Assembly: GCA_041497995.1 (NCBI GenBank)
Contig: JBGQHM010000111.1
Coordinates: 1-17,016, forward strand
Reading direction: 5' to 3'
Origin: Candidatus Binatia bacterium
GTDB taxonomy: Bacteria > Desulfobacterota > Binatia > HRBIN30
Length of the DNA stretch: 17,016 nucleotides
Shown here: piece after piece, positions 1 to 15,195 of the stretch
How the letters are laid out: each line of letters starts with the position of its first letter
Numbering within the stretch: position 1 is the first letter of the stretch
Notes under the pieces: model-generated
The model's input: the letters and a program-made list of their open reading frames with translations, nothing else
Told to the model about the DNA's origin: nothing
The model's database searches: none
Program-made: the position numbers and the translations under genes

Positions 1-2073
1 GCTTGGGAACGTGACACGCCGCGCACGAATTGGGGTCTCGGGTTCATCGAAGTGCACGACGCACGCGCAATGCCGCTCGGTTGGACCGAGCCCGACTTCG
101 ACGACGCGGCGTGGGACGCCGTGCAGATCCTGTCCGTTGGCGGCGGGCCACCTGACTCGATGCTCGGCGGTCTGAAGATCGAGCCGTTTCCCACGCTCGT
201 GCCACGCGCGATTCCGTTCCTCACAGAGGCGCCGGTTGCGCCCCTGCGTGTCGTCCAATGGTACGGCGCGGTTCCCGACAAGGAGTTGTCGCTGGAACGC
301 AGGCTCTATGAGGAAACGCTGCAGCCGTTGCCAGCCGGGGCGGTCGACCATCCCGACGCGTTGCTGCAATCCGACGACGGCGTGACCACTGTGCGCACGG
401 TCGAGGGATTGGATACCTCCTTCCTGCTCGACTTCGGACGCATCCATTCCGGCTATCCATTCATCGAGTTGGAGGCGCACGGTGGCGAAGTCGTCGAGGT
501 CGCGGTGGCCGAGGGCATTCCGGGTGAGTGGGACGCTGCGCTGCCGGCGCAGCCGCGCATCTCGAAAGACAGCGGGCACGGGACACATCTCTTCCGCTAC
601 ATCGCGCGGCCCGGCCGCCAGCGCTTCGAGCGTTTCGAATGGGCTGCCGTGCGCTACGCGCAAGTCACCGTGCGCAGCGCACCGCGTGGTCTGCACATCC
701 GTCACGTTGGGTCGACGTTCACGCACTACCCCGCCGACGCACGCGGGCGCTTCGAGTGTTCTGATCCGTTGCTCAACCAGCTGTGGGAGGTTGGGCGCTA
801 CACGCTGCAGCTGTGCATGCACGACGGCTGGGAGGACTGTCCCGGCCGCGAGCAACGTCAATGGCTCGGTGATGCCACAGTCGAGTTCCTCGTCGGCCAG
901 GCCGCGTTCGGCCCCAGTATCAACGCGCTCAACCGTCAGTTCCTGCAGCACGCCGCGGAGAGTCAGCGGTCCGACGGGCTGACGCAGATGTATGCGCCGG
1001 GAGATCATCGCACCAACGGCATGCTCATCCCCGATTGGACGCTGCAGTGGATCCTGAACGCCGAGCAGCATCTGCTGTACACCGGAGAAGTCGATGCGAT
1101 CGAGGCCGTGTTCCCAGCGATTCAGCGCGCGCTGGCGTGGTTCGAGCGGCAGATCGGACCGCACGACCTGGTGGCCAACCTACCGTACTGGCACTTCCAC
1201 GATTGGGCGGCGGTCGGGCGACAGGGGGAAGCGGCGACGCTCAACGCCGTCCTCGTCGGCGCGTTACGCGCCGGTGCAACGCTCGCGCGGGCGCTCGAAT
1301 CGGGACGCGCGGCGCGCCGCTACGACGCTGTGGCCGAGCGCATCACGGCGGCACTCAACGCGCGCCATTGGGATGCAGAGCGCGGAGTGTACGTCGACTG
1401 CGTCGACCCCGCGACCGACAAGCGCGAGCCACGTGCTTCGCAGCATGCCAACGCAGCACTGATTCTGTGGGACATCGCGCCGCGCGAGCGCTGGGCGTCG
1501 ATGATCCAGCGCATCACCGACCCGGCGCGCGTCGTCTTCACCGCCGCGCCGCCCATCGTGCCGAGCGGTGCGCCCTTCGATCCTGAGAACAACGTCGTCC
1601 TGGCCAACACGTTCTTCAGCCACTTCGTCTACCGCGCCCTCTGCCGCGCCGGTCGGTTCGATCTCGTGCTGGCAATGATGCGCGAGCGTTACGGCCGCAT
1701 GCTGGCGCGCGGCGCCACGACGCTGTGGGAGAGCTACGACCCCACCGCCAGCCTGTGCCATGGCTTCTCGGCGACTCCCGTGTACCAGTTGTCGACGGAG
1801 GTGCTTGGGGTGTACCCCACCGCACCCGGCTTCACCCGCTTCCGCGTGTCGCCGCAACTCGGTGATCTGCAGCGGGCCGGCGGACGCTTTCCCACTGTGC
1901 GGGGCGACGTCGAAGTACAGTGGGTGCGGAGCGCAGATCGAGTCGACATCGACATTACGGTCCCGGATCACACCGAGGCGGAACTGATTCCACCGTTCGG
2001 CGGCGACCCGCCGGTGCGGCTGGGACCGGGCCGCCATCGTTCGCGCGTTGCGGTCCCACACGAAAAAGCTTGA
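1..2073 (+). CDS. Glycoside hydrolase family 78 (alpha-L-rhamnosidase-like, six-hairpin glycosidase), 5'-truncated by the window edge
   Basis: Frame 1 is open from nt 1 with no stop, so the listed M at 52 is probably internal. The GH78-typical segment 'WEDCPGREQRQWLGD' and (alpha/alpha)6-barrel-like content are present. Stop is TGA at 2071-2073. Confidence 0.7.
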   Translation, partial: AWERDTPRTNWGLGFIEVHDARAMPLGWTEPDFDDAAWDAVQILSVGGGPPDSMLGGLKIEPFPTLVPRAIPFLTEAPVAPLRVVQWYGAVPDKELSLERRLYEETLQPLPAGAVDHPDALLQSDDGVTTVRTVEGLDTSFLLDFGRIHSGYPFIELEAHGGEVVEVAVAEGIPGEWDAALPAQPRISKDSGHGTHLFRYIARPGRQRFERFEWAAVRYAQVTVRSAPRGLHIRHVGSTFTHYPADARGRFECSDPLLNQLWEVGRYTLQLCMHDGWEDCPGREQRQWLGDATVEFLVGQAAFGPSINALNRQFLQHAAESQRSDGLTQMYAPGDHRTNGMLIPDWTLQWILNAEQHLLYTGEVDAIEAVFPAIQRALAWFERQIGPHDLVANLPYWHFHDWAAVGRQGEAATLNAVLVGALRAGATLARALESGRAARRYDAVAERITAALNARHWDAERGVYVDCVDPATDKREPRASQHANAALILWDIAPRERWASMIQRITDPARVVFTAAPPIVPSGAPFDPENNVVLANTFFSHFVYRALCRAGRFDLVLAMMRERYGRMLARGATTLWESYDPTASLCHGFSATPVYQLSTEVLGVYPTAPGFTRFRVSPQLGDLQRAGGRFPTVRGDVEVQWVRSADRVDIDITVPDHTEAELIPPFGGDPPVRLGPGRHRSRVAVPHEKA

Positions 2074-2153
2074 CCTTGAGAGCCAGGACGCCTACCTTCG
2101 CAGCGTTGGCTCCGGGGGGAGCGGAACCCTACAGATCGATGGAGGGACAGCTG

Positions 2154-2810
2154 ATGGAGGGACATCGCACGAGAGCGCGCGCGTTGGTAACTCTCACCGC
2201 GTGCACGGCGTTGCTTGCTGCCGTTAGTCTTCGCCCGAACCCCACGCTTGCTCAGGGCACCGGGGTAGGGGACTGCCTGAAGGGATGCCGGACCACCGCC
2301 AAGTCGTGCAATGATCCGGTGCGCAGCGACCACAAGACCTGTGCGCAGGGCTGCCGCGACGACATGAAGACGACGCTGCAAGGGTGCAAGACGGCTCAAG
2401 ACCCCGCGGCCTGCATCGGCGGCGCGTTTGACGGAGCCGAGACCTGCCTCGATGGCTGCCGGGCAACGGGGCAGACGGCTCACGCGACCTGCTTCGGCAA
2501 CACCAACGATTGCATCAAGGTGTGCACCCCGGAGTTGGGTGACTGCATCGTCGGCTGCCGGGAAACTGCGCGCACCTGCAAACAGGCAGCATATGATACC
2601 GGGTACACCTGCAAAGACAGCTGCCGGGAAACGCTGAAGACCATGCTGCAAGGCTGTCCGAGCGCCGCCGACCCGAGCGCCTGTGCGCACGCCGCGCGCG
2701 ACGCGGCAAAGATGTGCACGCAGCCGTGCGCGGACGCCGTCCGGTCTGCGATGAATGGTTGCACGGCGGACGCGAAGACGTGCAAGAACGGCTGCCTCTC
2801 AGTGCAGTAA
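2154..2810 (+). CDS. Secreted or lipoprotein-like cysteine-rich tandem-repeat protein of unknown function
   Basis: ATG at 2154 follows GGAGGG (2141-2146) at a 7-nt spacing. An in-frame ATG at 2139 is an alternative start, and the track ORF start at 1920 is an upstream read-through. The N-terminus 'MEGHRTRARALVTLTAC...' has a positive n-region, a hydrophobic core and a possible lipobox L-T-A-C. The mature part carries about 26 Cys in alternating 'CxxGCRxTAxxC' (~22 aa) and 'CxxxCRxxxKTxLQGCxxAxDPxAC' (~35 aa) modules. Confidence 0.6.
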   Translation: MEGHRTRARALVTLTACTALLAAVSLRPNPTLAQGTGVGDCLKGCRTTAKSCNDPVRSDHKTCAQGCRDDMKTTLQGCKTAQDPAACIGGAFDGAETCLDGCRATGQTAHATCFGNTNDCIKVCTPELGDCIVGCRETARTCKQAAYDTGYTCKDSCRETLKTMLQGCPSAADPSACAHAARDAAKMCTQPCADAVRSAMNGCTADAKTCKNGCLSVQ

Positions 2811-2830
2811 CGAGCCCGTACCGCATAAGC

Positions 2831-2870
2831 AAAGGGGGGTGGTACCGCGTGACGGTGCCACCCCCCTTGT
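2831..2870. terminator. Bidirectional rho-independent terminator between convergent genes
   Basis: A 14-bp GC-rich stem (2834-2847 pairing 2853-2866, one G.U pair) closes a 5-nt loop. It is flanked by AAA (2831-2833) and TTGT (2867-2870). It lies between the 2810 stop of the + gene and the 2892 stop of the - gene. Confidence 0.7.
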
Positions 2871-2891
2871 GCGTTCTACGAACCTTCTGAC

Positions 2892-4016
2892 TTAGTTCGA
2901 CAACTTGTACAGCTTCGCCGCATTGCCGGCACACATCTGTTGGCGCTCGGCGGTCGGCACGTCGCGGAACATGTCGTCGACGACGCGACGCGTCTCTGGC
3001 CAATCGCAGCCGTGGTGCGGATAGTCGGTCGACCACATCATGTTCTCGACGCCGATGACGTGGCGGTTCATCACGGCGTAGCGATCGATCATGAACGCGG
3101 CGCGCCAGTTCCGATGAAAGTAGAAGCTCGGCTCGTGCTTGAGCTTCACGGGGAGCCACCAGCGATTGCGCCACCAGCGATCGTCCATCTGCTCGAGGAT
3201 GTAGGGGATCCACCCGCACCCTGTTTCGACGGCGACCCAGATCAAATTGGGAAACCGATCATGCACACCGGAGCTGATGATCTCCGGCAGGTCAGTGATC
3301 ATGCTCGATGCACCGACGGTGGCCAACCCGGTGAGGTCGTCGCCGCGCACGCCCTTGGGCTTCGGCTTCAGGATCTGGCGCATCACCCGCACGTGAAAGT
3401 GCACCGGCACACATGCCGCCTGCACGGCATCCCAGAACGGATCGTCTTCGGGGCGGATCGCCGGGCCGGCGCTGGGCATGGTGTTGAGCCACACCCCGCG
3501 CATGCCCATCTTCAGGCAGCGTTCCATTTCCTTGATGCACGCATCGACGCCGAGCGCCGGCATCGCCGCCAACCCGATGAGCCGGTCCGGCGCTGCTTTC
3601 ACGAACTCCTGCGCCAGCCAGTTGTTGTAGGCCTGCACACCAGCGAGATGGAACTCGGGGTCAGGATCGGAAAAGAAGTGACTCATCATGCGCGCCGAAC
3701 CGAAGAGCACTTCCGCGTCGACGCCGTCGGTGTCCTGTTCTTCGAGACGCGGCGCCGCCTTGAAGTTCCCTTGATTCGCCGCCGCGAAGGTCACGCCGGT
3801 CCAGCGCACCTCTTCATGCTTGCGGCCCGCTGATGCGTAAATCCCGATCGGTGCCGGAGGCGTTTCGGGGGCAAACTGCCACGCTTCGCCACCTTCGCCG
3901 TCGGGCACGACTCGCGGTGCTTTCGCATGGAACTTCTTGGGCATGTACTCGGTCCACAGATGCGGCGGTTCGAGGATGTGCGAGTCCGCCGAGATGAGTC
4001 TGTATTCACGCGCCAT
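2892..4016 (-). CDS. Amidohydrolase-2 family metal-dependent hydrolase/decarboxylase (ACMSD/LigW-like)
   Basis: A 374-aa ORF. The N-terminus 'ISADSHILEPPHLWTEYMP' matches the Amidohydro_2 metal-binding HxH-type start. His/Asp residues typical of the TIM-barrel amidohydrolase fold follow. Confidence 0.7.
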   Translation of the reverse strand: MAREYRLISADSHILEPPHLWTEYMPKKFHAKAPRVVPDGEGGEAWQFAPETPPAPIGIYASAGRKHEEVRWTGVTFAAANQGNFKAAPRLEEQDTDGVDAEVLFGSARMMSHFFSDPDPEFHLAGVQAYNNWLAQEFVKAAPDRLIGLAAMPALGVDACIKEMERCLKMGMRGVWLNTMPSAGPAIRPEDDPFWDAVQAACVPVHFHVRVMRQILKPKPKGVRGDDLTGLATVGASSMITDLPEIISSGVHDRFPNLIWVAVETGCGWIPYILEQMDDRWWRNRWWLPVKLKHEPSFYFHRNWRAAFMIDRYAVMNRHVIGVENMMWSTDYPHHGCDWPETRRVVDDMFRDVPTAERQQMCAGNAAKLYKLSN

Positions 4017-4099
4017 GGGTACGACCTTTCTTTGTTCGGCTCCCGGAGGCAGACGCGCTGCCTCCGGCGACTGAGCGCCAGCGCTGCCGGCGTGAGCGT

Positions 4100-4135
4100 T
4101 CGTTCTTCACTGAACTAACACTTGTTAATATAGCC
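4100..4135. promoter_or_regulatory. AT-rich island with short palindromes in the divergent amidohydrolase/adhE promoter region; candidate operator
   Basis: 'cttcactgaactaacacttgttaatatagcc' is a local GC drop in a region otherwise about 68% GC. It contains the palindromes TTCAcTGAA (4106-4114) and TAACActTGTTA (4116-4127). It lies about 170 nt upstream of the adhE start. Confidence 0.3.
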
Positions 4136-4302
4136 TTCTGGCAGGTGCAAGAGTCTTCGCAGTCGTCGCAGGGCCGGTGCTGATGGTTTTCAGGAAATGC
4201 GAACGCTCTTCCTGCTGCGGGCCGCGGGTGGCCGCTATGCAACTGGCACCACGCTTGCTCAACTCGTTCTTCAACCAGTGCGGTGCGTGAGGAGGGACTC
4301 CG

Positions 4303-6939
4303 ATGCTCCAGACGGCAATCAAGCTGGGTGACCCCCCCCAGGTGGCGAGCGTGCGACGGAAGGAGCTCACGCCGGAGCGCCAGCGATATCTGGACGAGTT
4401 GGTGTCCCGCTCGCGGCACGCGGCGGCGACGTTCTACCAATTCTCGCAGGAGCAGGTGGATCGTTGCGTGCGTGCGATGGTGCTCGCCGGACTGGAGGCG
4501 GCGCAGCAGTTGGCGGCGCTCGCGGTGACGGAGACGAAGCTCGGGGTGCTCGAAGACAAGGTGGTCAAGAACATGGTGGCGACCGAGTTCGTGTACCACT
4601 CGATCAAGGACGAGAAAACGGTCGGGGTCATCCGCGAGTGTCCGGAGCGCAACCTGAAAGAGATCGCCGAGCCGATCGGTGTCATCCTCGGTGTCACGCC
4701 GATCACCAACCCGACGTCGACCGTGCTGTTCAAGTCGTTGATGATGGCGAAGACGCGTAACGCGGTGGTGTTCTGCCCGCATCCGGGCGCGCAGCAGTGC
4801 TCGAACGAGGCGGCACGCGTGATGTACGAGGCCGCGCTCGCGGCGGGGGCACCAGAGGGGTTCATCGGCTGGGTCGATGACATCGCCATCAGCGACACGC
4901 AGTATCTGATGCGTCACCCGGATGTGGCGCTCATCGATGCCACCGGCGGGCCGGGCGTGGTGAAAGCGGCGTACAGCTCCGGCAAACCGGCGCTCGGCGT
5001 CGGCGCCGGCAACGTGCCCTGCTACATCCACCGCAGCGCCGACCTCAACATGGCCGTCGTCGACATCCTCACTTCGAAGACCTTCGACAACGGCACCATT
5101 TGCGCGTCGGAGCAGACGGTACTTGTGGACCGTTCGGTGTACGCGCGCGTCGTCGAGCTCTTCGCGTCGCTCGGTGCGCATGTCTGCAGCGCAGAGGAAG
5201 TCGCGCTGCTCGAGCGCACCGTGGTGGATGCCACCACCGGGACGATGCGCCCGACGGCCGTCGGGCAGAGCGCGCCGGCGATCGCGCACGCCATCGGCAT
5301 GCACGTCGCGCCGGGCACCAAGCTGCTGCTGGCGCCGCTCCAAGGCGTCGGACGCGCCCACCCGCTGTCGTGCGAGAAGCTGTTCCCGGTCCTCGGCATC
5401 CTCCCGGTCGATGGCGAGGACGAAGCCATCAACGCCGCGATGGACGTGCTCTACTTCGGCGGCGTCGGTCACACCGCGTCGATCTTTTGTGAAGACGACG
5501 CGGTCATCGATCGCTATGGTGTGGCGCTGAACGCCGGGCGCATCATCGTCAACTGCCCCTCGTCAGTCGGCGCTCTCGGCGGCGTCTACAACGACCTGCG
5601 GCCGACCTTCTCGTTCGGCTGCGGCACCGGCGGCGGCAACAGCACGATCGAGAACGTCAGCGTGCGCAACTACATGAACGTCAAGCAGCTGGCGAAGCGG
5701 ACGCCGGCGCACCAGTGGCTGCGCGTGCCGAACCAGATCTACTACAACTTGCACGCGCTGGAGAACCTGCGCGCCATCGACGCCGGGAACGTGTTGATCA
5801 TCACTAGCCAGGACTTGGACGACCTCGGCCTGGTTGATCAAGTCCGCTCGTATCTCCCGAACGGCTCGCACGCTCACGTCTTCAACGAGGTAGAGGTCGA
5901 GCCGACGTATCGCGTCATCGCGCGCGGCGTCGAGGCGATCCAGCACCATCATCCCGATCACCTCATCGCCGTAGGTGGTGGCTCGGTCATGGATGCAGCG
6001 AAGGCGATGCGCTTGTTCTACGCGCATCCCGACTTGGACTTTCGCAGCTTGGAGACCACCTTCCTCGATCCACGCAAGCGAGTCATTCAGTACCCGCGCC
6101 AGGCACGCGATCATCTCAGGCTCATTGCCATCCCCACGACCAGCGGCACCGGCTCGGAAGTGACGCCGTTCGCGGTGATCACCGACAGCGAGCGCGGCCG
6201 CAAGGTACCGTTGTATGACAATAGTCTCATTCCCGACGTCGCGATCATCGATCCGCAGCTGGTGCGTGGCCTGCCGGCAAGCGTCACCGCCGATACCGGA
6301 CTCGATGCACTGACGCACGCGTTGGAGGCCGGCGTATCGATATTTGCGTCGGAGTATACGGACGCGCTGGCGCTGCAAGCCGCGCGGGTGGTCTTCGAGT
6401 TTTTGCCGCGGGCGGTGCACGACGGCAGCGACATGGAGGCGCGCGCCAAGATGCACAACGCCGCCTGCATGGCAGGGATGGCGTTCGCCAACGCCTTCGT
6501 CGGCGTCAACCATGCGCTGGCGCACAGCCTCGGATCGGCGTTCAAGATTCCGCACGGACGTGCCAACGCCGTGCTGTTGCCGTACGTTGTGCGCTACAAC
6601 GCCGCGGTGCCGAGTAAGTTCATGCCCTTCCCCAACGTCAAAGCCTACGTCGCGCACCGCAAGTATGCACAGTTTGCCGAGGCCATGAGTTGGGGCGGCT
6701 CGAGCCCTGAGGAGAAGGTCGAGATCCTGATCGCCAAGATCTTCGCGCTGCTGGAGACGTGCAATCTGCCGACCTCGATCAAGGAGTTGGGCATCGCCGC
6801 GGAAGACTTCGAGCGCGCGATACCCGATATCATCCGCGCCGCTTTCGACGACATCAGCATCCGGTCGAATCCGCGTATGCCGTTGATCAAGGAGCTCGAG
6901 GACATTCTGCGGACCGCATATGCGGGCCGCCGCAGCTGA
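4303..6939 (+). CDS. adhE: Bifunctional acetaldehyde-CoA/alcohol dehydrogenase AdhE (N-terminal ALDH domain plus C-terminal Fe-ADH domain)
   Basis: An 878-aa ORF. GAGGAGGG sits 6 nt upstream of the ATG. It is collinear with E. coli AdhE: 'FSQEQVD', the catalytic-Cys motif '[11 protein letters not shown]', Fe-ADH '[11 protein letters not shown]' and His-rich metal motifs 'HALAHSLG'. Confidence 0.9.
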
Positions 6940-6954
6940 GGCGGGAGGCGTGAC

Positions 6955-7260
6955 ATGAATCATCTGAACGGAGAGAACCCGCGACTGCGGCTCGATCCGG
7001 ATGGGAGCGAAACGTTCCTCAAACACCTCAGGGCTGAGCTGCAGAAGCCGTCGGTGTGCGCGGTCACCGTCGATCTAGGACGCGTCGGGCGCGTCGACCC
7101 GTTGATTCTGCAGACGCTACGCACTGCCGGCGAGGAAGCGGACGTCACTCGCAAGGATCTCTACGTCGACGGCGCCGGACCCGTCGTGTACAAGTCCTTG
7201 CAGCTCGCCAAGCTCGGCTCATTCTTCAAGCGGCTGCATCACGCGACCGCGCCATGCTGA
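6955..7260 (+). CDS. Small STAS-domain-like protein (putative anti-sigma-factor-antagonist fold), translationally coupled to adhE
   Basis: The ATG at 6955 is preceded by GGGAGG (6941-6946). 'VTVDLGRVGRVDPLILQTL' and 'DLYVDGAGPVVYKSLQLAKLGSFF' loosely resemble the SpoIIAA/STAS core. This is a weak recall-based assignment. Confidence 0.35.
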   Translation: MNHLNGENPRLRLDPDGSETFLKHLRAELQKPSVCAVTVDLGRVGRVDPLILQTLRTAGEEADVTRKDLYVDGAGPVVYKSLQLAKLGSFFKRLHHATAPC

Positions 7261-7354
7261 CGAAGTTTGGTCTGCTCTCCTGACGCGCCATCAGGGTACG
7301 CTGGCGCACGCCGCCGCCGATCTGCTACAGCCACGGCCACACGCGAGGTGCGCC

Positions 7355-8131
7355 ATGGTGACAAGCGATCTGGACGTCGGCTCTCAGTACCTGCACGCCA
7401 CAAAGGGCGGCGGTGTGTTGCGTGTCGTCATCGACCGACCCAAGCGCCGCAACGCGCTGACCATCGAGATGTACCACGGCCTGAAGAAGGCCACGGTGCT
7501 CGCCGAGCGCGACCCCGATGTGGATGTGCTCGTCGTCACGAGCACCGGCGAGTACTTTTGCGTCGGCGGCGAGATGGGCGGGCAACATGAAGGTGGGCAG
7601 GCGCTCGACCGCGAGACCGATCGCTTCGACCTGCTGCCGTTCGTCGAGCTCGAGCGCTGCCCGAAGATCGTCGTGATGGCGATCAACGGCATGTGTCAGG
7701 GCGGCGGGCTCAACATGACTTTGATGAGCGACATCTCCGTGGTTTCCGACCGCGCGACCTTCCGCGCGCCCGAGTTGCTGCGCGGCGTCGCCGACTGCTT
7801 TCTCGGTGCGCGGCTGGCCAGCCGTATCGGCATCGCGCGCGCCAAGTATCTGCTGTTCACGGCGCAGTACATCAGCGCGCAAGAGGCGCTGGCCATAGGC
7901 CTCATCTCACGCGTCGTCCCGCACGATCAACTCGAGACCGCGCTTGCTGAAACCATCGGCTGGATCCGCCAGACCGGCCCGCACGCGCGCACCGCGCTAA
8001 AGCGTGACATGAACCGCCAGCTACCGGTGATCGACTACCCGATGTTCGCCGAGTCGCTCGCGTCTGAAGAAGTACGCGAAGGCTTCACCGCCTTCGTCGA
8101 GAAGCGCCCACCGCGCTGGGCGAGCAAGTAG
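7355..8131 (+). CDS. Enoyl-CoA hydratase/isomerase (crotonase superfamily)
   Basis: A 258-aa ORF. 'RVVIDRPKRRNALT', 'YFCVGGEMGG' and 'GMCQGGGLNMTLMSD' are the crotonase oxyanion-hole signatures. ATG at 7355, TAG at 8129-8131. Confidence 0.8.
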   Translation: MVTSDLDVGSQYLHATKGGGVLRVVIDRPKRRNALTIEMYHGLKKATVLAERDPDVDVLVVTSTGEYFCVGGEMGGQHEGGQALDRETDRFDLLPFVELERCPKIVVMAINGMCQGGGLNMTLMSDISVVSDRATFRAPELLRGVADCFLGARLASRIGIARAKYLLFTAQYISAQEALAIGLISRVVPHDQLETALAETIGWIRQTGPHARTALKRDMNRQLPVIDYPMFAESLASEEVREGFTAFVEKRPPRWASK

Positions 8132-8609
8132 CGCCGCAGAAGCGCCGGTAGGTCCCCCTCCTTACCAAGGAGGGGGCTAGGGGGGAGGTTGCTCTGCGCG
8201 CCCGCAACACGTCCTCGATCCGCGCCAGCACACCCGCAAGATTCTCGAAGACATCCACGTTCGCAAACCGAAGCACCTCAATCCCGAAGCTCTTCAAGTA
8301 CGCCGTTCGCCGCTGGTCGTACGCGACGGCGTCCGCGGTGAAATGCGAATCGCCGTCGATCTCGATCGCCAACTTCGATTGTACTGCGTAGAAGTCGAGG
8401 ACGTAAGCGTTGACGCCGTACTGTCTGTGGAACTTGGTGCCGCGTTGTGCGCCTTTGAGTTGCTGCAACAGCCGGCGCTCGGCTTCCGGCGCGTTGTTGC
8501 GCAGTGTTTGGCGTTTGGTGCGTTCGGTGTGTTTGTTGAAGTGGAGTGTCAGAGCAACCTCCCCCTGCCCCCTCCTTGGTAAGGAGGGGGACCTGTGCCG
8601 CGCCCACAC
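8085..8609 (-). CDS. DUF559 domain protein (Vsr-like endonuclease fold; E. coli YcjD-like) with uncertain true ends, since the ORF reads through both flanking inverted repeats
   Basis: The core 'NKHTERTKR...LRNNAPEAERRLLQQLKG...GTKFHRQYGVNAYVLDFYAVQSKLAIEIDGDSHF...QRRTAYLKSFGIEVLRFANVDVFENLAGVLARIEDVL' matches the short (~120 aa) DUF559 family. The only available start is GTG at 8609, just outside the right repeat. No internal Met exists. The C-terminal ~40 aa are translated from the left repeat and overlap the crotonase 3' end by 47 nt. Confidence 0.6.
   Translation of the reverse strand: MWARHRSPSLPRRGQGEVALTLHFNKHTERTKRQTLRNNAPEAERRLLQQLKGAQRGTKFHRQYGVNAYVLDFYAVQSKLAIEIDGDSHFTADAVAYDQRRTAYLKSFGIEVLRFANVDVFENLAGVLARIEDVLRARRATSPLAPSLVRRGTYRRFCGATCSPSAVGASRRRR
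8151..8196. repeat. Left terminal inverted repeat containing a perfect hairpin (CCCCCTCCTT-acc-AAGGAGGGGG, 8154-8176) plus 'ctaggggggaggttgctctg'
   Basis: Seen directly. Its reverse complement recurs at 8550-8593 with only two small indels. Confidence 0.8.
8550..8593. repeat. Right terminal inverted repeat: 'cagagcaacctccccctg' plus hairpin CCCCCTCCTT-ggt-AAGGAGGGGG (8568-8590)
   Basis: Reverse complement of the left repeat. Differences are 'c-tagggggg-a' versus 'c-aggggg-a'. Confidence 0.8.
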
Positions 8610-8633
8610 CGGCGCGGCGTCGAGCGTTGCCGG

Positions 8634-9260
8634 TTACTTTCTCACGAAACCGCCGACGCCACGCACGATGAAGCTGTCGCACGTCGCGTCATTCAAGCGC
8701 GTCGCGATGTCGGTGGAGGAATTGGTCCCCAGACAGTTGCCCGCTCCAGCTGACTCGAGCAGCGCGACGCCGAGGACGGCGAACGGACTGCCTGAGGGAA
8801 ACGTGAGGCTGGCGAACACCGGGCCGAGATCCACTTTCACCTTGCCCTTGCCGCCCTTCAGCACGACCTTGACGTAGACATTCGTGACGTCGTCGCAGAT
8901 CGGTGGTGCTGCGGTGTCGACCGGGCAAGTGCTGACGGCGATTTTGAGGATGGGGTTGTTGGAATCGCTTTCTGTGGGCCCCGTCGTCATGAGGGCGCCG
9001 GCTCCGTCGGTCACTCCCTGGATCGTGCCAGTCACCTTGAGCGTGTCCGGAATCGTCACCTTCGATTTCGGAGACATCTTCGCCAGCGCGCATTCCGAAT
9101 TGTCAAACCCGCAGCTGAGACCCACGTTCAAGCAGAAGCCGGGACCGACGAAACAATCGGGCGGAGCGGGGATGATGTTCAGCTGGACCTTTGTCCCGGC
9201 CGCGGCCTGCGTGGCAACCAAGGAAAGCATCAACGCGAGCAAAGAGAATCGTCTGCTCAT
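8634..9260 (-). CDS. Secreted hypothetical protein (Sec signal peptide, 8 Cys)
   Basis: ATG at 9260 on the minus strand, with GGGGAGG about 9 nt upstream. The N-terminus 'MSRRFSLLALMLSLVATQAAAG' is a classic signal peptide. The track ORF start at 9332 is an upstream read-through. The body is G/T/S-rich with paired Cys. Confidence 0.6.
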   Translation of the reverse strand: MSRRFSLLALMLSLVATQAAAGTKVQLNIIPAPPDCFVGPGFCLNVGLSCGFDNSECALAKMSPKSKVTIPDTLKVTGTIQGVTDGAGALMTTGPTESDSNNPILKIAVSTCPVDTAAPPICDDVTNVYVKVVLKGGKGKVKVDLGPVFASLTFPSGSPFAVLGVALLESAGAGNCLGTNSSTDIATRLNDATCDSFIVRGVGGFVRK

Positions 9261-9339
9261 GATCACTACCTCCCCTTCTTGTTTTTTGCGATGGTGCTCC
9301 CAGGCAGGCAAAGTTGTCAAGCGTACCTGCACATCGGTC

Positions 9340-9368
9340 TTGACTTAACGAACGTTTGTTCGTAGCTA
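9340..9368 (+). promoter_or_regulatory. Sigma-70-like promoter (TTGACT-N17-TAGCTA) overlapped by a palindromic TetR-type operator ACGAAC-gttt-GTTCGT (9348-9363)
   Basis: Seen in sequence in the 128-bp divergent intergenic region between the secreted-protein gene and the TetR gene. Confidence 0.5.
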
Positions 9369-9388
9369 CAGCCGGGGTCTCCAATCCA

Positions 9389-10069
9389 GTGGTCACGAGC
9401 GTACGCAAGGCCAAACGCGCGGCAACGCCGACGCCGGCGCTACCGACGCGCGAGGTGATTCTCGACACTGCCGAGCGGCTGTTCGCCATGCATGGGGTGG
9501 ACAGCGTGGCGCTGCGCGATCTGGCGCGCGAGATGAACCTGACGGCACCGAGTTTGTACAACCACTTCCCCAGCAAGCAGGCACTGTACGACGCGGTACT
9601 GGACCGCGGCTTGCGGCCGATCCTCGAAGCGATTGCCGCGGCGTGGCATCCCGGCGCACTGCGCGCCGAACAGATGCGCGCCACGGTCGATACGCTGACG
9701 ACTCACCTCGCCACCCACCCGCATCTCGCCCGCCTGCTGCAGCGCGCGATGCTCGACCAGAGCGAGAGCGTGCAGAAACTCATGAGTCGCTGGCTCACGC
9801 CGCTGTACGTCGAGGGCATCGCTGTGATTCGCGAGACCGCCGGCGACGCCGGCTGGGAGGCAGACGAGGTGCCGCATCTCACCCTCGGATTGTTTGGGAT
9901 GGTCTTCGCGTATTTTACCAACGCCGCTGCGCTGCAATCGTTTGTTGCCGGCAGCGGCGATCCCATGTCACCGCAAGCGCTGGCGATCCAGCGCCGCGTC
10001 ATCGAAAAGGCGATCTACCGCTTGCTCGGGCCGCTGCCGCGCGGCGCCGAACGCAGAAAGAAGGCATGA
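9389..10069 (+). CDS. TetR/AcrR family transcriptional regulator
   Basis: HTH segment 'EVILDTAERLFAMHGVDSVALRDLAREMNLTAPSLYNHFPSKQALY'. The start is uncertain: GTG at 9389 is preferred, because the TTG at 9356 listed by the track lies inside the operator and promoter. Stop is TGA at 10067-10069. Confidence 0.75.
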   Translation: MVTSVRKAKRAATPTPALPTREVILDTAERLFAMHGVDSVALRDLAREMNLTAPSLYNHFPSKQALYDAVLDRGLRPILEAIAAAWHPGALRAEQMRATVDTLTTHLATHPHLARLLQRAMLDQSESVQKLMSRWLTPLYVEGIAVIRETAGDAGWEADEVPHLTLGLFGMVFAYFTNAAALQSFVAGSGDPMSPQALAIQRRVIEKAIYRLLGPLPRGAERRKKA

Positions 10070-10073
10070 GAGC

Positions 10074-11195
10074 ATGGCTGCAGCTGAACAGGGAAAGATC
10101 ACCGACGAAGGCATCGCTAAGCTGCGCGAACGCGTCGGCAAAGGCTTCGAAGGCCGGCGCCCGTGGCGCACTGAAGTCACGCGCGACGCCATTTATCACC
10201 TCGCGTTGGCGATCGGCGACCTCAACCCGCTGTACCTCGACGAGGAGTACGCCAAGAAGACGCGCTGGGGGACGCTGCTGGCGCCGCCGATCATCGTGCA
10301 GACGATGGACACGCTGCGCGCCGTCGGCCACAGCGGTCTGCCCGAAGGCCTGCCGGGCGTGCACTCCATCTGGACCGGCTCGCTCTATGAGTGGGTACGT
10401 CCGCCGCAGCTCGGTGACCGCATTCGCGCCGACTCCTACATGAAGGAGATCCGCGAGAAGGACAGCACCTTCGGCGGCGGCCGCGCGCTCTATCAAACCT
10501 ACGAGGCCAAGTACTACGACCAGAACGGTACCTACATGGGCGTCCGCAACGACACCTGGATTCGCATCGAGCGCGCCAAGACGGCGGAGAAAAAGAAATA
10601 CGGCGACATCAAGTTGGCCGAATGGAAGCCGGAAGACATCACGGGCTTCATGGAAGAGTACCGCACCGAACGACGTACGACCGCACGCTATTGGAACGAC
10701 GTGAAAGTGGGCGAGTCGATGAACCGCATCATCAAGGGCCCGCTGACACCGACCGCCGAGATCGCCTTCGAGTCATACTTCGGCATCTATTTGGTCGGCA
10801 ACAAAGTCGCCGCAAACCTGTACGCCAAGCACCCGGCGCTGATGATTCCCAACGAGCAAGGCATCCCCGAGCCACCGCAACGTGTGCATTGGGACAACGC
10901 CTTCACGCAACGTTTGCTCGGCTTGCCAGGTGCGTATGATCTCGGTCCTGAGCGGTGCTCGTGGCTCATCCAGGGGATGACCGACTGGATCGGCGACAAC
11001 GGCCGGCTGACCAAGCTCGAAGCCAAGTACCTGAAGTTCAACTACATGGGTGACGTCACCTGGGTGCAGGGCAAGGTGACCGACAAGTTCGAACAGGATG
11101 GTAAAGGCTTCGTACGCTGCGCGCTCGAATGCGTCAACCATCGCGACGAAGTTACGGCGGCGGCAACCGCCGAGGCGGAGTTGCCACACCGCTGA
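10074..11195 (+). CDS. Double hot-dog MaoC-family (R)-specific enoyl-CoA hydratase/dehydratase (MaoC_dehydrat_N plus MaoC_dehydratase)
   Basis: ATG at 10074 lies 4 nt after the TetR stop, giving a 373-aa product. The track start at 9894 is an in-frame read-through of the TetR 3' end. Two hot-dog halves are visible, one of them at 'HRDEVTAAATAEAELPHR'. Confidence 0.7.
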   Translation: MAAAEQGKITDEGIAKLRERVGKGFEGRRPWRTEVTRDAIYHLALAIGDLNPLYLDEEYAKKTRWGTLLAPPIIVQTMDTLRAVGHSGLPEGLPGVHSIWTGSLYEWVRPPQLGDRIRADSYMKEIREKDSTFGGGRALYQTYEAKYYDQNGTYMGVRNDTWIRIERAKTAEKKKYGDIKLAEWKPEDITGFMEEYRTERRTTARYWNDVKVGESMNRIIKGPLTPTAEIAFESYFGIYLVGNKVAANLYAKHPALMIPNEQGIPEPPQRVHWDNAFTQRLLGLPGAYDLGPERCSWLIQGMTDWIGDNGRLTKLEAKYLKFNYMGDVTWVQGKVTDKFEQDGKGFVRCALECVNHRDEVTAAATAEAELPHR

Positions 11196-11211
11196 TCCGA
11201 CGGAGAGCATC

Positions 11212-12447
11212 ATGAAACTGGCAGACGTCGATCTGTGCAACCTCGACCAGTTCGAGACGGGTGTCCCGCACCATGTCTTCAAACTGCTGCGTGCCGAATC
11301 GCCGGTGCACCGCCATGCGGAGCCCAATGGCGGCCCCGGGTTCTGGGTGGTCACGAAATATCACGACCTGATGAACGTTTCGAAGAACCCGGGCACGTTC
11401 TCGTCCTACAAGGGCGGCACCAATATCTTCGACGTCGAGCCGGAGCAGCTCAGCCAAACGCGGATGATCATGCTCAACATGGATCCACCGGCGCATAGCA
11501 AGTATCGCAAGCTGGTGAGCCAAGGCTTCGTACCGCGCATCGTCTCGCGGCTGGAAGAGCACGTCCGCGAGATGACGCGGCACATCGTCGACAGCATCGC
11601 CGCACGCGGCGAGTGCGACTTCGTCACCGAGGTCGCCGCCGAGCTGCCGCTGCAGGTGATCGCCGAGTTTCTCGGCGTCCCGCTCGCGGATCGCCACAAG
11701 GTCTTCGAATGGAGCAACCGCCTCATCGGCTTCGACGATCCGGAATTCAACGGCAACGCCAAGGAAGAGGGGATGCGCGCCGCCACCGAGATGTACATGT
11801 ATGCGAACCAGCTCGCCCTCGAGCGGCGCGATCATCCGCGCGACGACCTGGTCAGCGTGTTGATGCGTGGCGAGGTTGATGGCGAGCGCTTGTCGGAGAT
11901 GGAGTTCGATTCGTTCTTTCTGCTGCTCGCGGTGGCGGGGAACGAGACGACGCGCAACCTGATTTCCGGGGGCATGCTGGCGCTCATCGAACACCCCGAG
12001 CAGCGCGCGCGGCTGGTCGCCGACATGTCGCTGCTGCCCACCGCGGTCGAAGAGATGCTGCGCTGGGTGTCGCCGGTGATGCACTTCCGCCGCACCGCAA
12101 CTCGTGACACGGAGCTTCGTGGCCAGAAAATCGGCGAGGGCGAAAAGGTGGTGATCTTCTATCCGTCGGTGAACCGCGACGAGGAGATCTTTCCCGACGG
12201 TGATCAGTTCAACGTCAGCCGCAGCCCGAACGAGCATCTCGCCTTCGGTATCGGCGAACACTTCTGTATCGGGTCAAACCTTGCACGGCTTGAGATCCGA
12301 CTGATGTTCCAGGAATTGCTGACCCGCCTGCCGGACATTGAGCTGGCAGGGCCGGTACACCGCCTGCGGTCGAACTTCATCAACGGCATCAAGCGCATGC
12401 CCGTACGCTTCACCCCTGAACGCGCACACCACGCGGCACACGCGTGA
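11212..12447 (+). CDS. Cytochrome P450, CYP125/CYP142-like (steroid/alkyl side-chain terminal hydroxylase family)
   Basis: ATG at 11212 with GGAGAG 5 nt upstream. Heme-thiolate motif 'FGIGEHFCIGSNLARLE', the EXXR motif 'EEMLRW' and 'AGNETTRN' in the I-helix. The N-terminus 'MKLADVDLCNLDQFETGVPHHVF' resembles mycobacterial CYP142/CYP125. Confidence 0.85.
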   Translation: MKLADVDLCNLDQFETGVPHHVFKLLRAESPVHRHAEPNGGPGFWVVTKYHDLMNVSKNPGTFSSYKGGTNIFDVEPEQLSQTRMIMLNMDPPAHSKYRKLVSQGFVPRIVSRLEEHVREMTRHIVDSIAARGECDFVTEVAAELPLQVIAEFLGVPLADRHKVFEWSNRLIGFDDPEFNGNAKEEGMRAATEMYMYANQLALERRDHPRDDLVSVLMRGEVDGERLSEMEFDSFFLLLAVAGNETTRNLISGGMLALIEHPEQRARLVADMSLLPTAVEEMLRWVSPVMHFRRTATRDTELRGQKIGEGEKVVIFYPSVNRDEEIFPDGDQFNVSRSPNEHLAFGIGEHFCIGSNLARLEIRLMFQELLTRLPDIELAGPVHRLRSNFINGIKRMPVRFTPERAHHAAHA

Positions 12448-12458
12448 AGTGCGGCGAC

Positions 12459-13688
12459 ATGAACCTCGACGACATCGACCTGTTGAACGCCGACAACTTC
12501 GTTGCGGGCGTCCCGCACGAAGCCTTCCGTACGCTGCGCCAGCAGGCGCCGGTGTTCTGGCACAAGGAAGCCGACGGCCCTGGATTCTGGGCGGTGACGA
12601 AGTATCAGGACGTCGCCACGGTATCGCGCGACCCGCGCACCTACTCCTCGGCCAAGAAAGGGGTGTTCGTCTTCGATCCGGTGCCCGAAGATCTCCAGCG
12701 TATGCAGCTGATGATGCTCAACATGGACCCGCCGAAGCACACCAAGCTGCGGGCTCTAGTGAACAAGGGCTTCACGCCGCGTATGGTCGCGCAGCTCGAA
12801 TCGCGTCTGCGCGCCAGAACCAACGAGATCATCGACGATGTCGCCGCGAGGGGACAGTGCGACTTTGTGAGCGACATCGCCGCCGAGCTGCCGCTGCAAG
12901 CCATTGCCGAGCTGCTGGGCATCCCGCTCTCCGACCGGCATTTGGTGTTCAACTGGACCAACCGCCTGATCGGTTTCGACGACCCGGATCAGGGGTCGTG
13001 GGAGGAAGGCAAGCTCGCCGCTGCGGAGATGTACATGTACGCCAACCAGCTCGCCGCCGAGCGCCGCGACCATCCGGGTGACGACCTCGTCAGCGTGCTG
13101 ATGAACGCCGAGGTCGAAGGCGAACGGCTGACGGAGCTGGAGTTCGATCTGTTCTTCGTCCTGCTCGCCGTGGCCGGCAACGAGACGACGCGCAACCTGA
13201 TCTCCGGCGGCATGCTGGCGTTGATCGAGCATCCGGAGGAGCGCGCGCGGCTCGCGGCCAATCCCGCGTTGATGCCCACCGCCGTCGAGGAGATGCTGCG
13301 CTGGGTGTCGGCGGTCATCGAGTTCCGCCGCACCGCGACCCGCGATACCGAGCTACGCGGGCAGAAGGTCCGGGCGGGTGACAAGGTCATCATCTACTAC
13401 ATTTCGGCCAACCGCGACGAAGACGTGTTCCCCGACGCCGACCGCTTCGATGTCGGTCGTACGCCCAACGATCATCTGGCATTCGGTATCGGCGAGCATT
13501 TCTGCCTCGGATCCAATCTGGCGCGGCTGGAGATTCGCATCATGTTCGAGGAGCTGCTGCGTCGCTTGCCGGATATCGAGTTGGCCGGTGCCGTCGACCG
13601 CTTGCGTTCCAGCCTGATCAACGGCATCAAGCGTATGCCGGTGGTGTTTACTCCTGAGCGCCAGCGCCACGCCGTTGGCGGAGGATGA
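12459..13688 (+). CDS. Cytochrome P450, tandem paralog of the preceding gene (CYP125/CYP142-like)
   Basis: ATG at 12459 gives 'MNLDDIDLLNADNF', which aligns residue-for-residue with the upstream P450 N-terminus. The GTG at 12444 listed by the track overlaps the previous stop. Motifs 'FGIGEHFCLGSNLARLE', 'EEMLRW' and 'AGNETTRN'. Identical nucleotide stretches are shared, for example 11941-11966 and 13177-13202. Confidence 0.85.
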   Translation: MNLDDIDLLNADNFVAGVPHEAFRTLRQQAPVFWHKEADGPGFWAVTKYQDVATVSRDPRTYSSAKKGVFVFDPVPEDLQRMQLMMLNMDPPKHTKLRALVNKGFTPRMVAQLESRLRARTNEIIDDVAARGQCDFVSDIAAELPLQAIAELLGIPLSDRHLVFNWTNRLIGFDDPDQGSWEEGKLAAAEMYMYANQLAAERRDHPGDDLVSVLMNAEVEGERLTELEFDLFFVLLAVAGNETTRNLISGGMLALIEHPEERARLAANPALMPTAVEEMLRWVSAVIEFRRTATRDTELRGQKVRAGDKVIIYYISANRDEDVFPDADRFDVGRTPNDHLAFGIGEHFCLGSNLARLEIRIMFEELLRRLPDIELAGAVDRLRSSLINGIKRMPVVFTPERQRHAVGGG

Positions 13689-13695
13689 GGCTGCG

Positions 13696-13890
13696 ATGAA
13701 GATTCGCATCGACTACGACTTGTGTGAAGGCAACGCCGTGTGCATGAAGGTCTGCCCCGAAGTCTTCGAGGTAGGTGACGACGATCGCGCGCGGTTACGA
13801 GTTAAGGACCCGGACGAGAACCTGCGCGCGAAAGTCGAGGCAGCAGTGCGCCGCTGTCCGCGGCAAGCGCTGGCCATCGAAGCCGCCTGA
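13696..13890 (+). CDS. Small single-cluster ferredoxin (3Fe-4S/4Fe-4S FdxD-type, P450 redox-partner class)
   Basis: ATG at 13696 with GGAGGA about 9 nt upstream. 'MKIRIDYDLCEGNAVCMKVCPEVFEVGDDD...RRCPRQA' is 64 aa with four Cys in the pattern C-x5-C-x3-CP...CP. It sits 7 nt after the second P450. Confidence 0.8.
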   Translation: MKIRIDYDLCEGNAVCMKVCPEVFEVGDDDRARLRVKDPDENLRAKVEAAVRRCPRQALAIEAA

Positions 13891-13915
13891 GGCGCGCCGC
13901 CCCGCGTTGGGGACG

Positions 13916-13943
13916 TTGACTCCCATCTGATTCACGCTAGCTT
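13916..13943 (+). promoter_or_regulatory. Putative sigma-70-like promoter for the encapsulin operon (TTGACT 13916-13921, N16, TAGCTT 13938-13943)
   Basis: Seen in the 86-bp gap between fdx1 and the EncFtn gene. It has the same TTGACT...TAGCT architecture as the TetR-operon promoter at 9340. Confidence 0.4.
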
Positions 13944-13976
13944 GCGGGTTGTCGACGACTGCGAAGGGAGACCGGC

Positions 13977-14339
13977 ATGGCAAGCGACGCGTATCACGAA
14001 CCGCTGGACCTGATCTCGGAGCGTACCCGCAACCTGCACCGCGCCATCGTCAGCCTGATGGAGGAGCTGGAAGCCATCGACTGGTATCAGCAGCGTGCCG
14101 AAGCCTGCTCGGATCCGCAGCTCAAAGCCGTTCTGCTGCACAACAAGAACGAAGAGATCGAGCACGCCATGATGGTGCTCGAATGGATCCGGCGGAACGA
14201 CGAGCACTTCAATGACCCCATGAAGACGTACCTGTTCACCGAAGCGCCGATCACCGGCATCGAGAAGGCCGCCGAGGGCGAGGCTTCCGCCGCGGCGCCG
14301 AACGCGACGCTCGGTATCGGTGCCTTGAAAGGGAGGTGA
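13977..14339 (+). CDS. Encapsulated ferritin-like protein (EncFtn/Flp cargo) with C-terminal encapsulin targeting peptide
   Basis: ATG at 13977 with GGGAG 6 nt upstream. 'HEPLDLISERTRNLHRAIVSLMEELEAIDWYQQR...NKNEEIEHAMMVLEWIRRN...TYLFTEAPITG' is collinear with EncFtn, including the ExxH ferroxidase motif. A flexible linker precedes the C-terminal 'ATLGIGALKGR', which matches the family-1 cargo-loading peptide (GxGxLKG). Confidence 0.85.
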   Translation: MASDAYHEPLDLISERTRNLHRAIVSLMEELEAIDWYQQRAEACSDPQLKAVLLHNKNEEIEHAMMVLEWIRRNDEHFNDPMKTYLFTEAPITGIEKAAEGEASAAAPNATLGIGALKGR

Positions 14340-14342
14340 GCC

Positions 14343-15152
14343 GTGGACCTGCTGAAGCGGAAGCTGGCGCCGATCACGCCTGAGGCGTGGAAACAGATTG
14401 ACGAAGAGGCGAAGCGTGTCCTGCAGCTCACCCTCGCGGGCCGCAAGCTCGTCGACGTCGACGGGCCACACGGCTGGCAACACGCTGCGGTGAACACCGG
14501 CCATTTGAGCATAAAGTCGGATGCCGTTCTCGGCGTCCCGTGGGGGATTCGGGAGGTCGTGCCGTTGATTGAGCTGCGGGTACCCTTCGAGCTGTCGATT
14601 ATGGAGCTCGACAACGCGGCGCGCGGCGCGACGTTGGACTTGGAGCCTGTCGTCGCTGCGGCGGAGCGCGTCGCCCGCGCCGAGGATCTCACCATCTTCA
14701 CCGGTTTCAAGCCGGCAGGCATCGACGGCATCATCGCCCAGAGCCCGCACCCTGCGATCACCATCCCCGACGACTTCGCGAACTACCCACAGGTCGTCGT
14801 CGAGGCGGTGGAAACGTTGCGGCGCGCCGGCATCAACGGGCCCTACGCGATCGCCCTCGGACCGGACTGCTACGCCGGGCTCTCGCAGGCAGCGGAAGAC
14901 GGCTACCCGATCCGCGACCGGGTCCAGCGCTTCCTCGACGGACCGCTGGTGTGGGCACCGCAGGTTGACGGTGCCGTCGTGCTGTCCGTACGCGGCGGTG
15001 ATTTCACGCTCACGATCGGCCAGGACCTGTCGATCGGCTACGCCTCGCACAGCCACGAGAAGGTGGAGCTGTATCTGACGGAGTCGTTCGCCTTCCGTGT
15101 GCACGAGCACGGCGCCGCGGTGCACCTCAAGCCGAAACGCGGCAAGAAGTGA
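14343..15152 (+). CDS. Family-1 encapsulin nanocompartment shell protein (HK97 fold, linocin M18-like)
   Basis: GTG at 14343, 3 nt after the EncFtn stop, with GGGAGG 6 nt upstream. A 269-aa ORF. 'MDLLKRKLAPITPEAWKQIDEEAKRVL...LAGRKLVDVDGPHGW...VVPLIELRVPF...GPYAIALGPDCY...DGYPIRDRVQRFLDGPLVWAP...GGDFTLTIGQDLSIGYASH' is collinear with T. maritima/M. xanthus-type encapsulins. Confidence 0.9.
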   Translation: MDLLKRKLAPITPEAWKQIDEEAKRVLQLTLAGRKLVDVDGPHGWQHAAVNTGHLSIKSDAVLGVPWGIREVVPLIELRVPFELSIMELDNAARGATLDLEPVVAAAERVARAEDLTIFTGFKPAGIDGIIAQSPHPAITIPDDFANYPQVVVEAVETLRRAGINGPYAIALGPDCYAGLSQAAEDGYPIRDRVQRFLDGPLVWAPQVDGAVVLSVRGGDFTLTIGQDLSIGYASHSHEKVELYLTESFAFRVHEHGAAVHLKPKRGKK

Positions 15153-15195
15153 ATTGTGTTGCTGGTGCCGCGACGCGTGTGCAAGGATCGGAGAG

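Follow-up and report, generated by a model that had tools for sequence, protein, structure and literature searches.

A bacterial cysteine-rich protein made of duplicated helical hairpins with a predicted disulfide ladder

Here we describe a small gene for a cysteine-rich protein in a 17,016-nucleotide stretch of DNA from Candidatus Binatia bacterium (contig JBGQHM010000111.1 of assembly GCA_041497995.1, positions 1 to 17,016), hereafter called the window. The coding sequence lies on the plus strand, downstream of a GH78-like gene and convergent with a gene of the Amidohydro_2 family, and it is preceded by a Shine-Dalgarno-like hexamer (Table 1). The encoded mature chain has about 185 residues, a mass of about 19 kDa and a pI of 7.4. 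We favour the start at 2154 over an in-frame ATG at 2139, as the former is equivalent to the initiator methionine of the orthologues (MEGH.., MEEN.., MHAN..). The 11-nucleotide string ATGGAGGGACA is duplicated here, the copies (2139-2149 and 2154-2164) lying 15 nucleotides apart and giving rise to the two in-frame ATGs; the GGAGGG within the first copy forms the ribosome-binding site of the second ATG, the start that matches the orthologues. Further upstream, TTGACC and TACCTT are separated by a 17-nucleotide spacer (window 2068-2096). This element, with which the stop codon of the GH78-like gene overlaps, is a weak sigma-70-like match below the threshold of our scan, and it could be the cysteine-rich gene's own promoter.

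Table 1. Coordinates of the cysteine-rich gene and associated features in the window
Feature	Position	Strand	Remarks
Coding sequence, precursor of the cysteine-rich protein	2154..2810	+	218 codons plus TAA stop
Shine-Dalgarno-like GGAGGG	2141..2146	+	7 nt 5' of the ATG at 2154; read from sequence
Sec-type signal peptide, residues 1-33	2154..2252	+	predicted cleavage between TLA and QG; includes C17
Module 1	2274..2525	+	C41-C124; helix 1 (37-78) with C41, 45, 52, 63, 67, 78; DP-containing tip 79-83; helix 2 (84-124) with C87, 98, 102, 113, 120, 124; 12 Cys
Module 1, predicted pairs			41-124, 45-120, 52-113, 63-102, 67-98, 78-87; i+j = 165 for all six; putative pairing
Module 2	2544..2795	+	C131-C214; helix 129-166, tip 167-173, helix 174-216; 12 Cys
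Module 2, predicted pairs			131-214, 135-210, 142-203, 153-192, 157-188, 168-177; i+j = 345 for all six; putative pairing
15-bp GC-rich inverted repeat	2833..2867		between the convergent cysteine-rich and Amidohydro_2 genes; -42.7 kcal/mol, z -5.2

Syntenic orthologues of 215-218 residues are present in five lineages (the proteins P0001 to P0004 and a 216-residue open reading frame (ORF) at locus L007), with amino-acid identities to the window protein of 56-62%. All 24 mature cysteines are invariant in four aligned orthologues of 56-60% identity. The pairwise ratio of non-synonymous to synonymous substitution rates (dN/dS) of the cysteine-rich gene is 0.17-0.39, compared with 0.03-0.15 for the neighbouring amidohydrolase in the same genomes, whose amino-acid identity is 82-97%. 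The gene is thus under purifying selection, yet it evolves several-fold faster than the adjacent amidohydrolase and its constraint is concentrated on the cysteines; it is a fast-evolving gene inside a slow-evolving syntenic block. Because of the syntenic orthologues, the invariant cysteines and the dN/dS values, we conclude that the ORF at 2154-2810 is a real gene.

The precursor begins with a signal peptide of the Sec type, with a basic n-region (R5, R7 and R9), a 16-residue hydrophobic core (residues 11-26) and small residues at positions -3 and -1. The relatives carry equivalent signal peptides with ordinary AxA sites of the signal peptidase I type, and the original prediction of a secreted protein is thus borne out. 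We could not detect a twin-arginine translocation (Tat) motif of the form [ST]RRx[FLIVM][LIVM] in any of 39 family members; an RR pair precedes the first module cysteine in 5 of the 39, and only in P0003 and P0020 does it fall in the n-region of the signal peptide. With a Sec-type signal and no Tat motif, the protein would cross the membrane unfolded and with free thiols.

The precursor contains 25 cysteines, one of which (C17) belongs to the signal peptide and 24 to the mature chain. The protein is therefore as cysteine-rich as had been predicted, with a count slightly below the roughly 26 cysteines in about 190 mature residues given at the time. The mature chain consists of two tandem 84-residue modules of 12 cysteines each (residues 41-124 and 131-214), separated by a 7-residue step from the last cysteine of one to the first of the other. 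Within each module the cysteine spacing is 4,7,11,4,11,9,11,4,11,7,4, a palindromic and hence mirror-symmetric series. The two halves can be aligned over 86 residues with no gap, at a z of 18 against full shuffles and of 6.9 when the shuffling left the cysteines in place. Both repeated motifs named in the original prediction are found, C-x2-G-C-R-x-TA-x2-C at residues 41-52 and 131-142, and C-x3-C-R-x3-KT-x-LQGC-x2-A-x-DP-x-AC at residues 63-87 and 153-177. The internal duplication deduced from them is correct, but the two motifs cover the first helix of each 12-cysteine module only, and what was overlooked is that the modules are helix-loop-helix hairpins carrying mirror-symmetric cysteines on an 11-residue register.

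The mirror symmetry is best seen when the cysteines of a module are matched from the outside inward (Table 1). All 12 predicted pairs then have a constant sum of residue numbers within their module (165 and 345, respectively), and a constant sum is the mark of residues that face one another across two antiparallel helices. The original prediction had raised the question of a regular cysteine ladder; the constant register is consistent with one, with the pairing itself predicted from this geometry. Each module includes two sets of CX3C motifs in mirror order (41/45 with 120/124 and 63/67 with 98/102 in the first module; 131/135 with 210/214 and 153/157 with 188/192 in the second). All mature cysteines occupy the a and e positions of an 11-residue (hendecad) repeat, the two partners of every predicted pair being one a and one e. 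In the family alignment the a and e positions that are not cysteine are alanine (97% Ala at A91 and A181, mostly Ala at positions 56, 74, 109, 146, 164 and 199). Beside a cysteine, position d is frequently Gly, Ala or Pro; Leu, Val or Ile make up 50-90% of positions b and i, and positions f and j carry Arg or another charged residue. Every helix thus presents two adjacent stripes, a Cys/Ala stripe that faces the hairpin partner and a hydrophobic stripe that can pack hairpin on hairpin.

We calculated an AlphaFold2 model of the protein from an alignment of 39 sequences. The mean predicted local distance difference test score (pLDDT) is 90 (about 97 over the mature part, 55-69 in the signal peptide stretch) and the predicted template modeling score (pTM) is 0.76. 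The mature chain is predicted to fold into a four-helix bundle of ∼40-residue helices, the boundaries of which are given in Table 1. A single module modelled alone, from 63 aligned modules, yields a hairpin with helices at residues 2-42 and 48-88 of the module (pLDDT is 97.6, pTM is 0.80). In these models the hairpin, and not the four-helix bundle, appears to be the self-sufficient unit, in agreement with the odd number of modules (five) in P0008, a relative of 548 amino acids and 68 cysteines (locus L013, 4573-6219). The five copies in this protein mark the hairpin as a mobile repeat that is a unit of its own. The N-terminal stretch of P0008 has a shorter CX3C pattern (4,18,4,9,4,18,4), and the neighbourhood of its gene, with genes for a sulfotransferase and a BrnA antitoxin, bears no relation to that in the window. 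A fold search with the whole model returned generic long helical bundles only, the closest being the de novo designs 4uos and 7jh5 (4-10% identity). Searching the Protein Data Bank (PDB) with a single module in Foldseek returned only hairpins of a generic kind, for example ZraP and the receptor-binding hairpins of colicins (E above 0.8, identity ≤21%). There is no solved homologue.

The family to which the protein belongs became visible only in an exhaustive phmmer search over 1.84 billion representative sequences, a word-indexed search having recovered only 3-7 relatives. The exhaustive search identified 53 proteins at E < 0.001, nearly all of which have 200-250 residues, a signal peptide and the pattern of 2 x 12 cysteines. 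The only common spacing variants are 10 for 11 after the hairpin tip and 5 for 4 in one CX3C motif. Comparison of 39 members revealed that 22 of the 24 cysteine columns are invariant and the other two 97% conserved, far beyond what chance would give at a mean column identity of 26%. Those members that we looked up are all metagenomic, are annotated as 'hypothetical protein' and form tiny clusters. A genome scan with an alignment of close relatives located a single metagenome-assembled genome (DATKMS010000173.1, our locus L007), the sole named source of a relative. It is labelled Candidatus Margulisiibacteriota, but with 66% GC at the locus this label may be unreliable. Gene order there is that of the window, and the nucleotide identity is 78-82%.

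Sequence searches with the window protein against Pfam, NCBIfam and the PDB gave no match at E ≤ 10, and a Pfam scan of the 39 relatives gave none at E ≤ 1. Profile searches of the PDB with the 39 whole proteins and with the 63 modules returned non-significant matches to CP12 loops only, and in the literature on DUF6502 (see below) and on cysteine-rich periplasmic four-helix proteins we found no description of the family. The protein is thus uncharacterised and without a nameable family, as had been stated at the outset, and it represents a rare bacterial family of about 50 clusters that lacks a Pfam or NCBIfam model.

We infer that the cysteines form disulfides in mirror-image connectivity and that the protein acts as a scaffold. 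The reading that we hold with moderate confidence is a disulfide-laddered four-helix rod, which is a structural and chemical model and not a physiological role. The Sec pathway would deliver the unfolded chain with free thiols into an oxidising envelope, where ∼40-residue helices would pair antiparallel in the hendecad register. The Cys/Ala positions a and e would then face the partner helix and six pairs of cysteines would stand opposed in each hairpin. Oxidation after export would create six nested disulfides per hairpin, or 12 in total, presumably with the help of a disulfide isomerase because the pairs are non-consecutive in the chain. The Leu/Val/Ile stripe of the b and i positions could pack the two stapled hairpins together, so that the product would be a rigid rod of four helices, some 6 nm in length, whose fast-evolving surface is rich in Arg and Asp. 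In such a rod the cysteines would be structural staples, not ligands, and the protein would be no enzyme but a hyperstable scaffold or binding module outside the cytoplasm.

The main argument for cross-links is steric: where the two helices are predicted to face each other so closely, only alanine and other small residues, or a disulfide, should fit. In P0037, P0044 and P0046, C6 and C7 are jointly absent and the hairpin tip is shortened, which lends slight support to a C6-C7 bond. CP12, whose cysteine-pair loops resemble the hairpin tip at a non-significant E (see below), offers a precedent, and the lack of metal genes consistently nearby also speaks for the ladder. The original prediction had offered metal binding or a disulfide-rich extracellular scaffold as alternatives, and of these the scaffold is better supported and metal binding the less probable.

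Several observations weigh against the disulfide ladder. The bonds are deduced from sequence geometry alone. A single member of the C6/C7 pair is lost in P0005 (C87 to Ser) and in P0016, which leaves an unpaired cysteine, and the three joint losses could go back to one ancestral deletion. Forming twelve nested, non-consecutive disulfides would be hard with DsbA alone, and no Dsb gene is linked to the locus. No functional partner is conserved beside the gene in the window's clade, and the scaffold role is thus without direct support. Finally, it is with such CxxxC pairs, lined up along one face of a helix in the interior of a four-helix bundle, that Csp proteins bind Cu(I) (PMC5171941).

This precedent leads to the strongest of the alternatives, namely that the 24 cysteines stay reduced, line the four-helix bundle and bind soft metals (Cu(I), or Cd, Hg or As), making the protein a convergent, extracytoplasmic analogue of Csp1 and Csp3. 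The predicted four-helix fold, the eight CxxxC pairs within helices, a cysteine density per helix similar to that of Csp3 and the fact that only the cysteines are strictly conserved all speak for such a store. MtCsp3 has eight Cu(I) sites built from CXXXC motifs on single helices, and Csp1 is exported (PMC5171941). However, the Csp family PF03860 is matched neither by the window protein (E ≤ 10) nor by the 39 members (E ≤ 1), and hhalign gives a probability of 0.6% for the family profile against BsCsp3 (5fig_A). The spacing of 4,7,11, with alanine at the other a and e positions and a separate Leu/Val stripe, differs from the 4,3,4,3,4 spacing of Csp proteins, whose a/d heptad positions fill the core. 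Export of the Sec type, rather than by Tat as in Csp1, would expose the thiols to the oxidising envelope while the chain is still unfolded. The single hairpin is predicted to be self-sufficient, and one member has five modules. Conserved His or Met residues at the bundle ends are absent, and no copper-homeostasis genes are linked: neither copper genes nor other metal genes lie consistently near the cysteine-rich gene in any lineage examined. Extracytoplasmic copper sites, moreover, usually employ Met and His rather than Cys. We therefore regard the metal store as unlikely. Our estimate is a little lower still for a bolder proposal, in which the protein would be either an independently evolved, Sec-exported, thiolate-lined store or detoxifier of soft metals such as Cu(I), with up to about 24 ligating cysteines per chain (more than any known Csp), or an envelope 'redox capacitor' that passes 24 electrons reversibly between thiols and disulfides.

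The same stapled fold might also serve attack or defence, as an antimicrobial, a toxin-like protein or an inhibitor of proteases or glycosidases, in analogy to the plant α-hairpinins (CX3C-Xn-CX3C). The outer and inner cysteine quartets of each module are formally twin-CX3C motifs, and α-hairpinins, which are four-cysteine helix-loop-helix antimicrobial peptides, provide a precedent (PMC11591084). A fast-evolving surface, the contrast in identity and dN/dS with the adjacent amidohydrolase, and an orphan gene whose neighbours change would suit a binder of this kind. Against it, the dN/dS is well below 1, about 185 residues are far above the size of an α-hairpinin, and no immunity gene, secretion-system gene or toxin domain lies nearby. 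The gene neighbourhood of a sister clade, described next, looks like a housekeeping envelope module, and we consider an offensive or defensive role improbable.

In this larger sister clade, the '10-spacing' members, the cysteine-rich gene heads a conserved three-gene operon (L008, 10001-13597; L010, 10001-13577; L011, 3749-6371). The second gene encodes a DUF6502 (PF20112) protein of about 296 amino acids without a signal peptide. The product of the third has the LxGC lipobox of a lipoprotein, a domain at the N terminus that weakly resembles CarboxypepD_reg, and DUF5666-like repeats, each with a pair of cysteines. A tblastn search did not find the DUF6502 and lipoprotein partners in the window or in L001-L004 and L007, and for DUF6502 itself we found no literature, PDB relative or NCBIfam model. 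Other members of the '11-spacing' subfamily have unrelated neighbours.

Around the orthologous genes of the window's clade, the downstream side is constant. All lineages have a convergent Amidohydro_2 gene (window 2892-4016, minus strand) followed by an AdhE-like gene, which in the window is an aldehyde/alcohol dehydrogenase at 4303-6939. Their convergent orientation means that the Amidohydro_2 and cysteine-rich genes share no transcript. The inverted repeat between them (Table 1) corresponds to what had been predicted to be a strong terminator. The hairpin is indeed strong, but it has no T-run, was not called by the intrinsic-terminator scan and recurs in only 3 of the 5 orthologous loci including the window: analogous hairpins of different sequence occur in L003 and L007, L002 has a weak one and L001 none. 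It is plausibly a bidirectional transcript end between convergent genes and is not distinctive. An Rfam scan of the window gave no match.

The upstream gene, on the other hand, varies. It is GH78-like in the window, as originally noted, as well as in L003/L004 and L007, whereas L001 has a glutathione S-transferase (GST) gene on the opposite strand and L002 an AMP-binding enzyme; L001 and L007 differ in this gene though their cysteine-rich proteins are 78% identical. Since the upstream gene differs among orthologous loci and GH78 occupies the position in only 3 of 5 lineages, the linkage to GH78 is incidental, and a functional connection between the two genes is not supported. The left edge of the window truncates the GH78-like gene (window 1-2073), which comprises 673 amino acids here, compared with 853 or more and 1035 amino acids in orthologous ORFs; its nucleotide similarity to L003 and L007 begins at base 1.

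These data also bear on the idea of a lipoprotein that is anchored by C17 and accessory to the upstream GH78 rhamnosidase-like enzyme. The sequence L-T-A-C17 is compatible with the lipobox that had been suggested, the cysteine-rich gene lies on the same strand 80 nucleotides 3' of the GH78-like gene, and this arrangement recurs in the lineages named above. Yet C17 is replaced by Tyr in P0001 and is absent in most of the 39 relatives. It lies in the middle of the hydrophobic core, 6 hydrophobic residues past the n-region, and is followed by a normal AxA-type site. The upstream genes of L001 and L002 are not GH78 despite orthologous cysteine-rich proteins, and more distant relatives have unrelated neighbours. 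The lipoprotein reading is rejected by the non-conserved C17, and a GH78 accessory of this sort has very little left to recommend it.

A case for a spurious ORF, produced by chance or left behind by a pseudogene in a GC-rich genome, could be made from the composition of the window (64% GC, crowded with long overlapping ORFs, among them a 240-amino-acid ORF on the opposite strand at 1968-2690 that is the usual by-product of such GC content) and from the absence of the exact protein sequence from a collection of 15 billion proteins, but this reading is practically refuted by orthologues in five lineages that retain synteny, length and all 24 cysteines, the dN/dS values, 53 representatives nearly all with the shared cysteine pattern, the very high AlphaFold2 confidence and a good ribosome-binding site.

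Elsewhere in the window, positions 7355-13688 resemble a catabolic cluster, with genes for an enoyl-CoA hydratase, a TetR regulator, a protein with FAS1/MaoC-like dehydratase domain and two tandem cytochromes P450, whose ORFs (11098-12447 and 12444-13688) overlap by 4 nucleotides. A minus-strand ORF of 510 amino acids (13932-15464) has no Pfam match, and its translation is rich in Arg and of low complexity, as shadow ORFs in GC-rich DNA typically are.

On present evidence the protein is a structural curiosity that answers no long-standing question. If the disulfide ladder is true, it would be, to our knowledge, the most densely disulfide-stapled all-helical bacterial protein, with 12 bonds in about 185 residues and one rung for roughly every 7 residues along the helix pair. 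The hyperstable bundles of parametric design, to which its structure matches best, would then have a counterpart in nature. A compact module of 84 residues, of which nature uses two or five copies, may interest protein engineers, and twelve nested, non-consecutive disulfides in a Sec substrate would pose an oxidative folding problem. If instead the cysteines were metal ligands, helical bundles that store metal at high capacity would have arisen a second time, by convergence. The domain family, with its roughly 50 unannotated clusters, merits a Pfam entry, and the sister clade ties it to the uncharacterised DUF6502.

The closest structural matches, the long helical bundles 4uos, 7jh5 and 7cbc, are de novo designs without a disulfide ladder and have no evolutionary relation to the protein. 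The first of them, which we take to be a right-handed four-helix design, would fit the 11-residue periodicity. The only sequence resemblance in the PDB concerns the tip motif aC-x2-DP-x-S-x2-C, which recalls the cysteine-pair loops of CP12 at a non-significant E of 0.14: the helix-flanked C-x2-D-P-x-S-x2-C aligns with CAGDPVSGEC. The crystal structure of a CBS-CP12 protein shows a disulfide between the two helices of its N-terminal CP12 region (PMC6142219). CP12, however, is an intracellular, conditionally disordered redox switch with two cysteine pairs only. Membership in the CP12 family is rejected, as the AWD_VEEL core is absent from the cysteine-rich protein and the resemblance amounts to this loop motif. 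Helicobacter Hcp proteins, with Sel1-like repeats, are secreted all-α repeat proteins whose helix pairs are bridged by disulfides, one per 36-residue repeat, in a solenoid of short helices; a Sel1 match in Pfam was found neither in the cysteine-rich protein nor in its relatives.

Csp1 and Csp3 (PF03860/DUF326; 5fig, 5arm and 5fjd) are similar in being four-helix bundles with helix-borne cysteines that include CxxxC pairs. With these helix-borne cysteines a Csp monomer can hold up to about 19 Cu(I), and Csp1 and Csp2 are exported with Tat signals (PMC5171941). Their helices have about 25 residues, compared with about 40 in the cysteine-rich protein, and BsCsp3 and the Streptomyces Ccsp space their cysteines 4,3,4,3,4 in an all-cysteine core, compared with 4,7,11,4,11. 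No Csp was among the fold-search matches listed and none was found in the PDB profile search. We reject membership in the Csp family on sequence (the hhalign result and the lack of a PF03860 match), cysteine periodicity and signal type.

The small Tim proteins, CHCH proteins and α-hairpinins, which are stapled by twin-CX3C or twin-CX9C motifs, come nearest in principle. They too are helix-loop-helix hairpins with the cysteines on one face in mirror order, outer bonded to outer and inner to inner, and each of our modules can be read as two nested twin-CX3C quartets plus two single rungs. Tim10/DDP and CHCH gave no Pfam match, and neither small Tim nor CHCH proteins appear among the fold-search matches listed. 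What is shared is a principle, not membership in a family. Those hairpins have 2 disulfides and helices of ∼15-20 residues, whereas the module described here has 6 predicted rungs on ∼40-residue helices, a strict 11-residue register with alanine fillers and a tandem duplication, and it is bacterial and exported by the Sec route. On our best reading, the cysteine-rich protein extends the principle of the disulfide-stapled α-hairpin to a six-rung ladder in hendecad register, duplicated into a four-helix rod.

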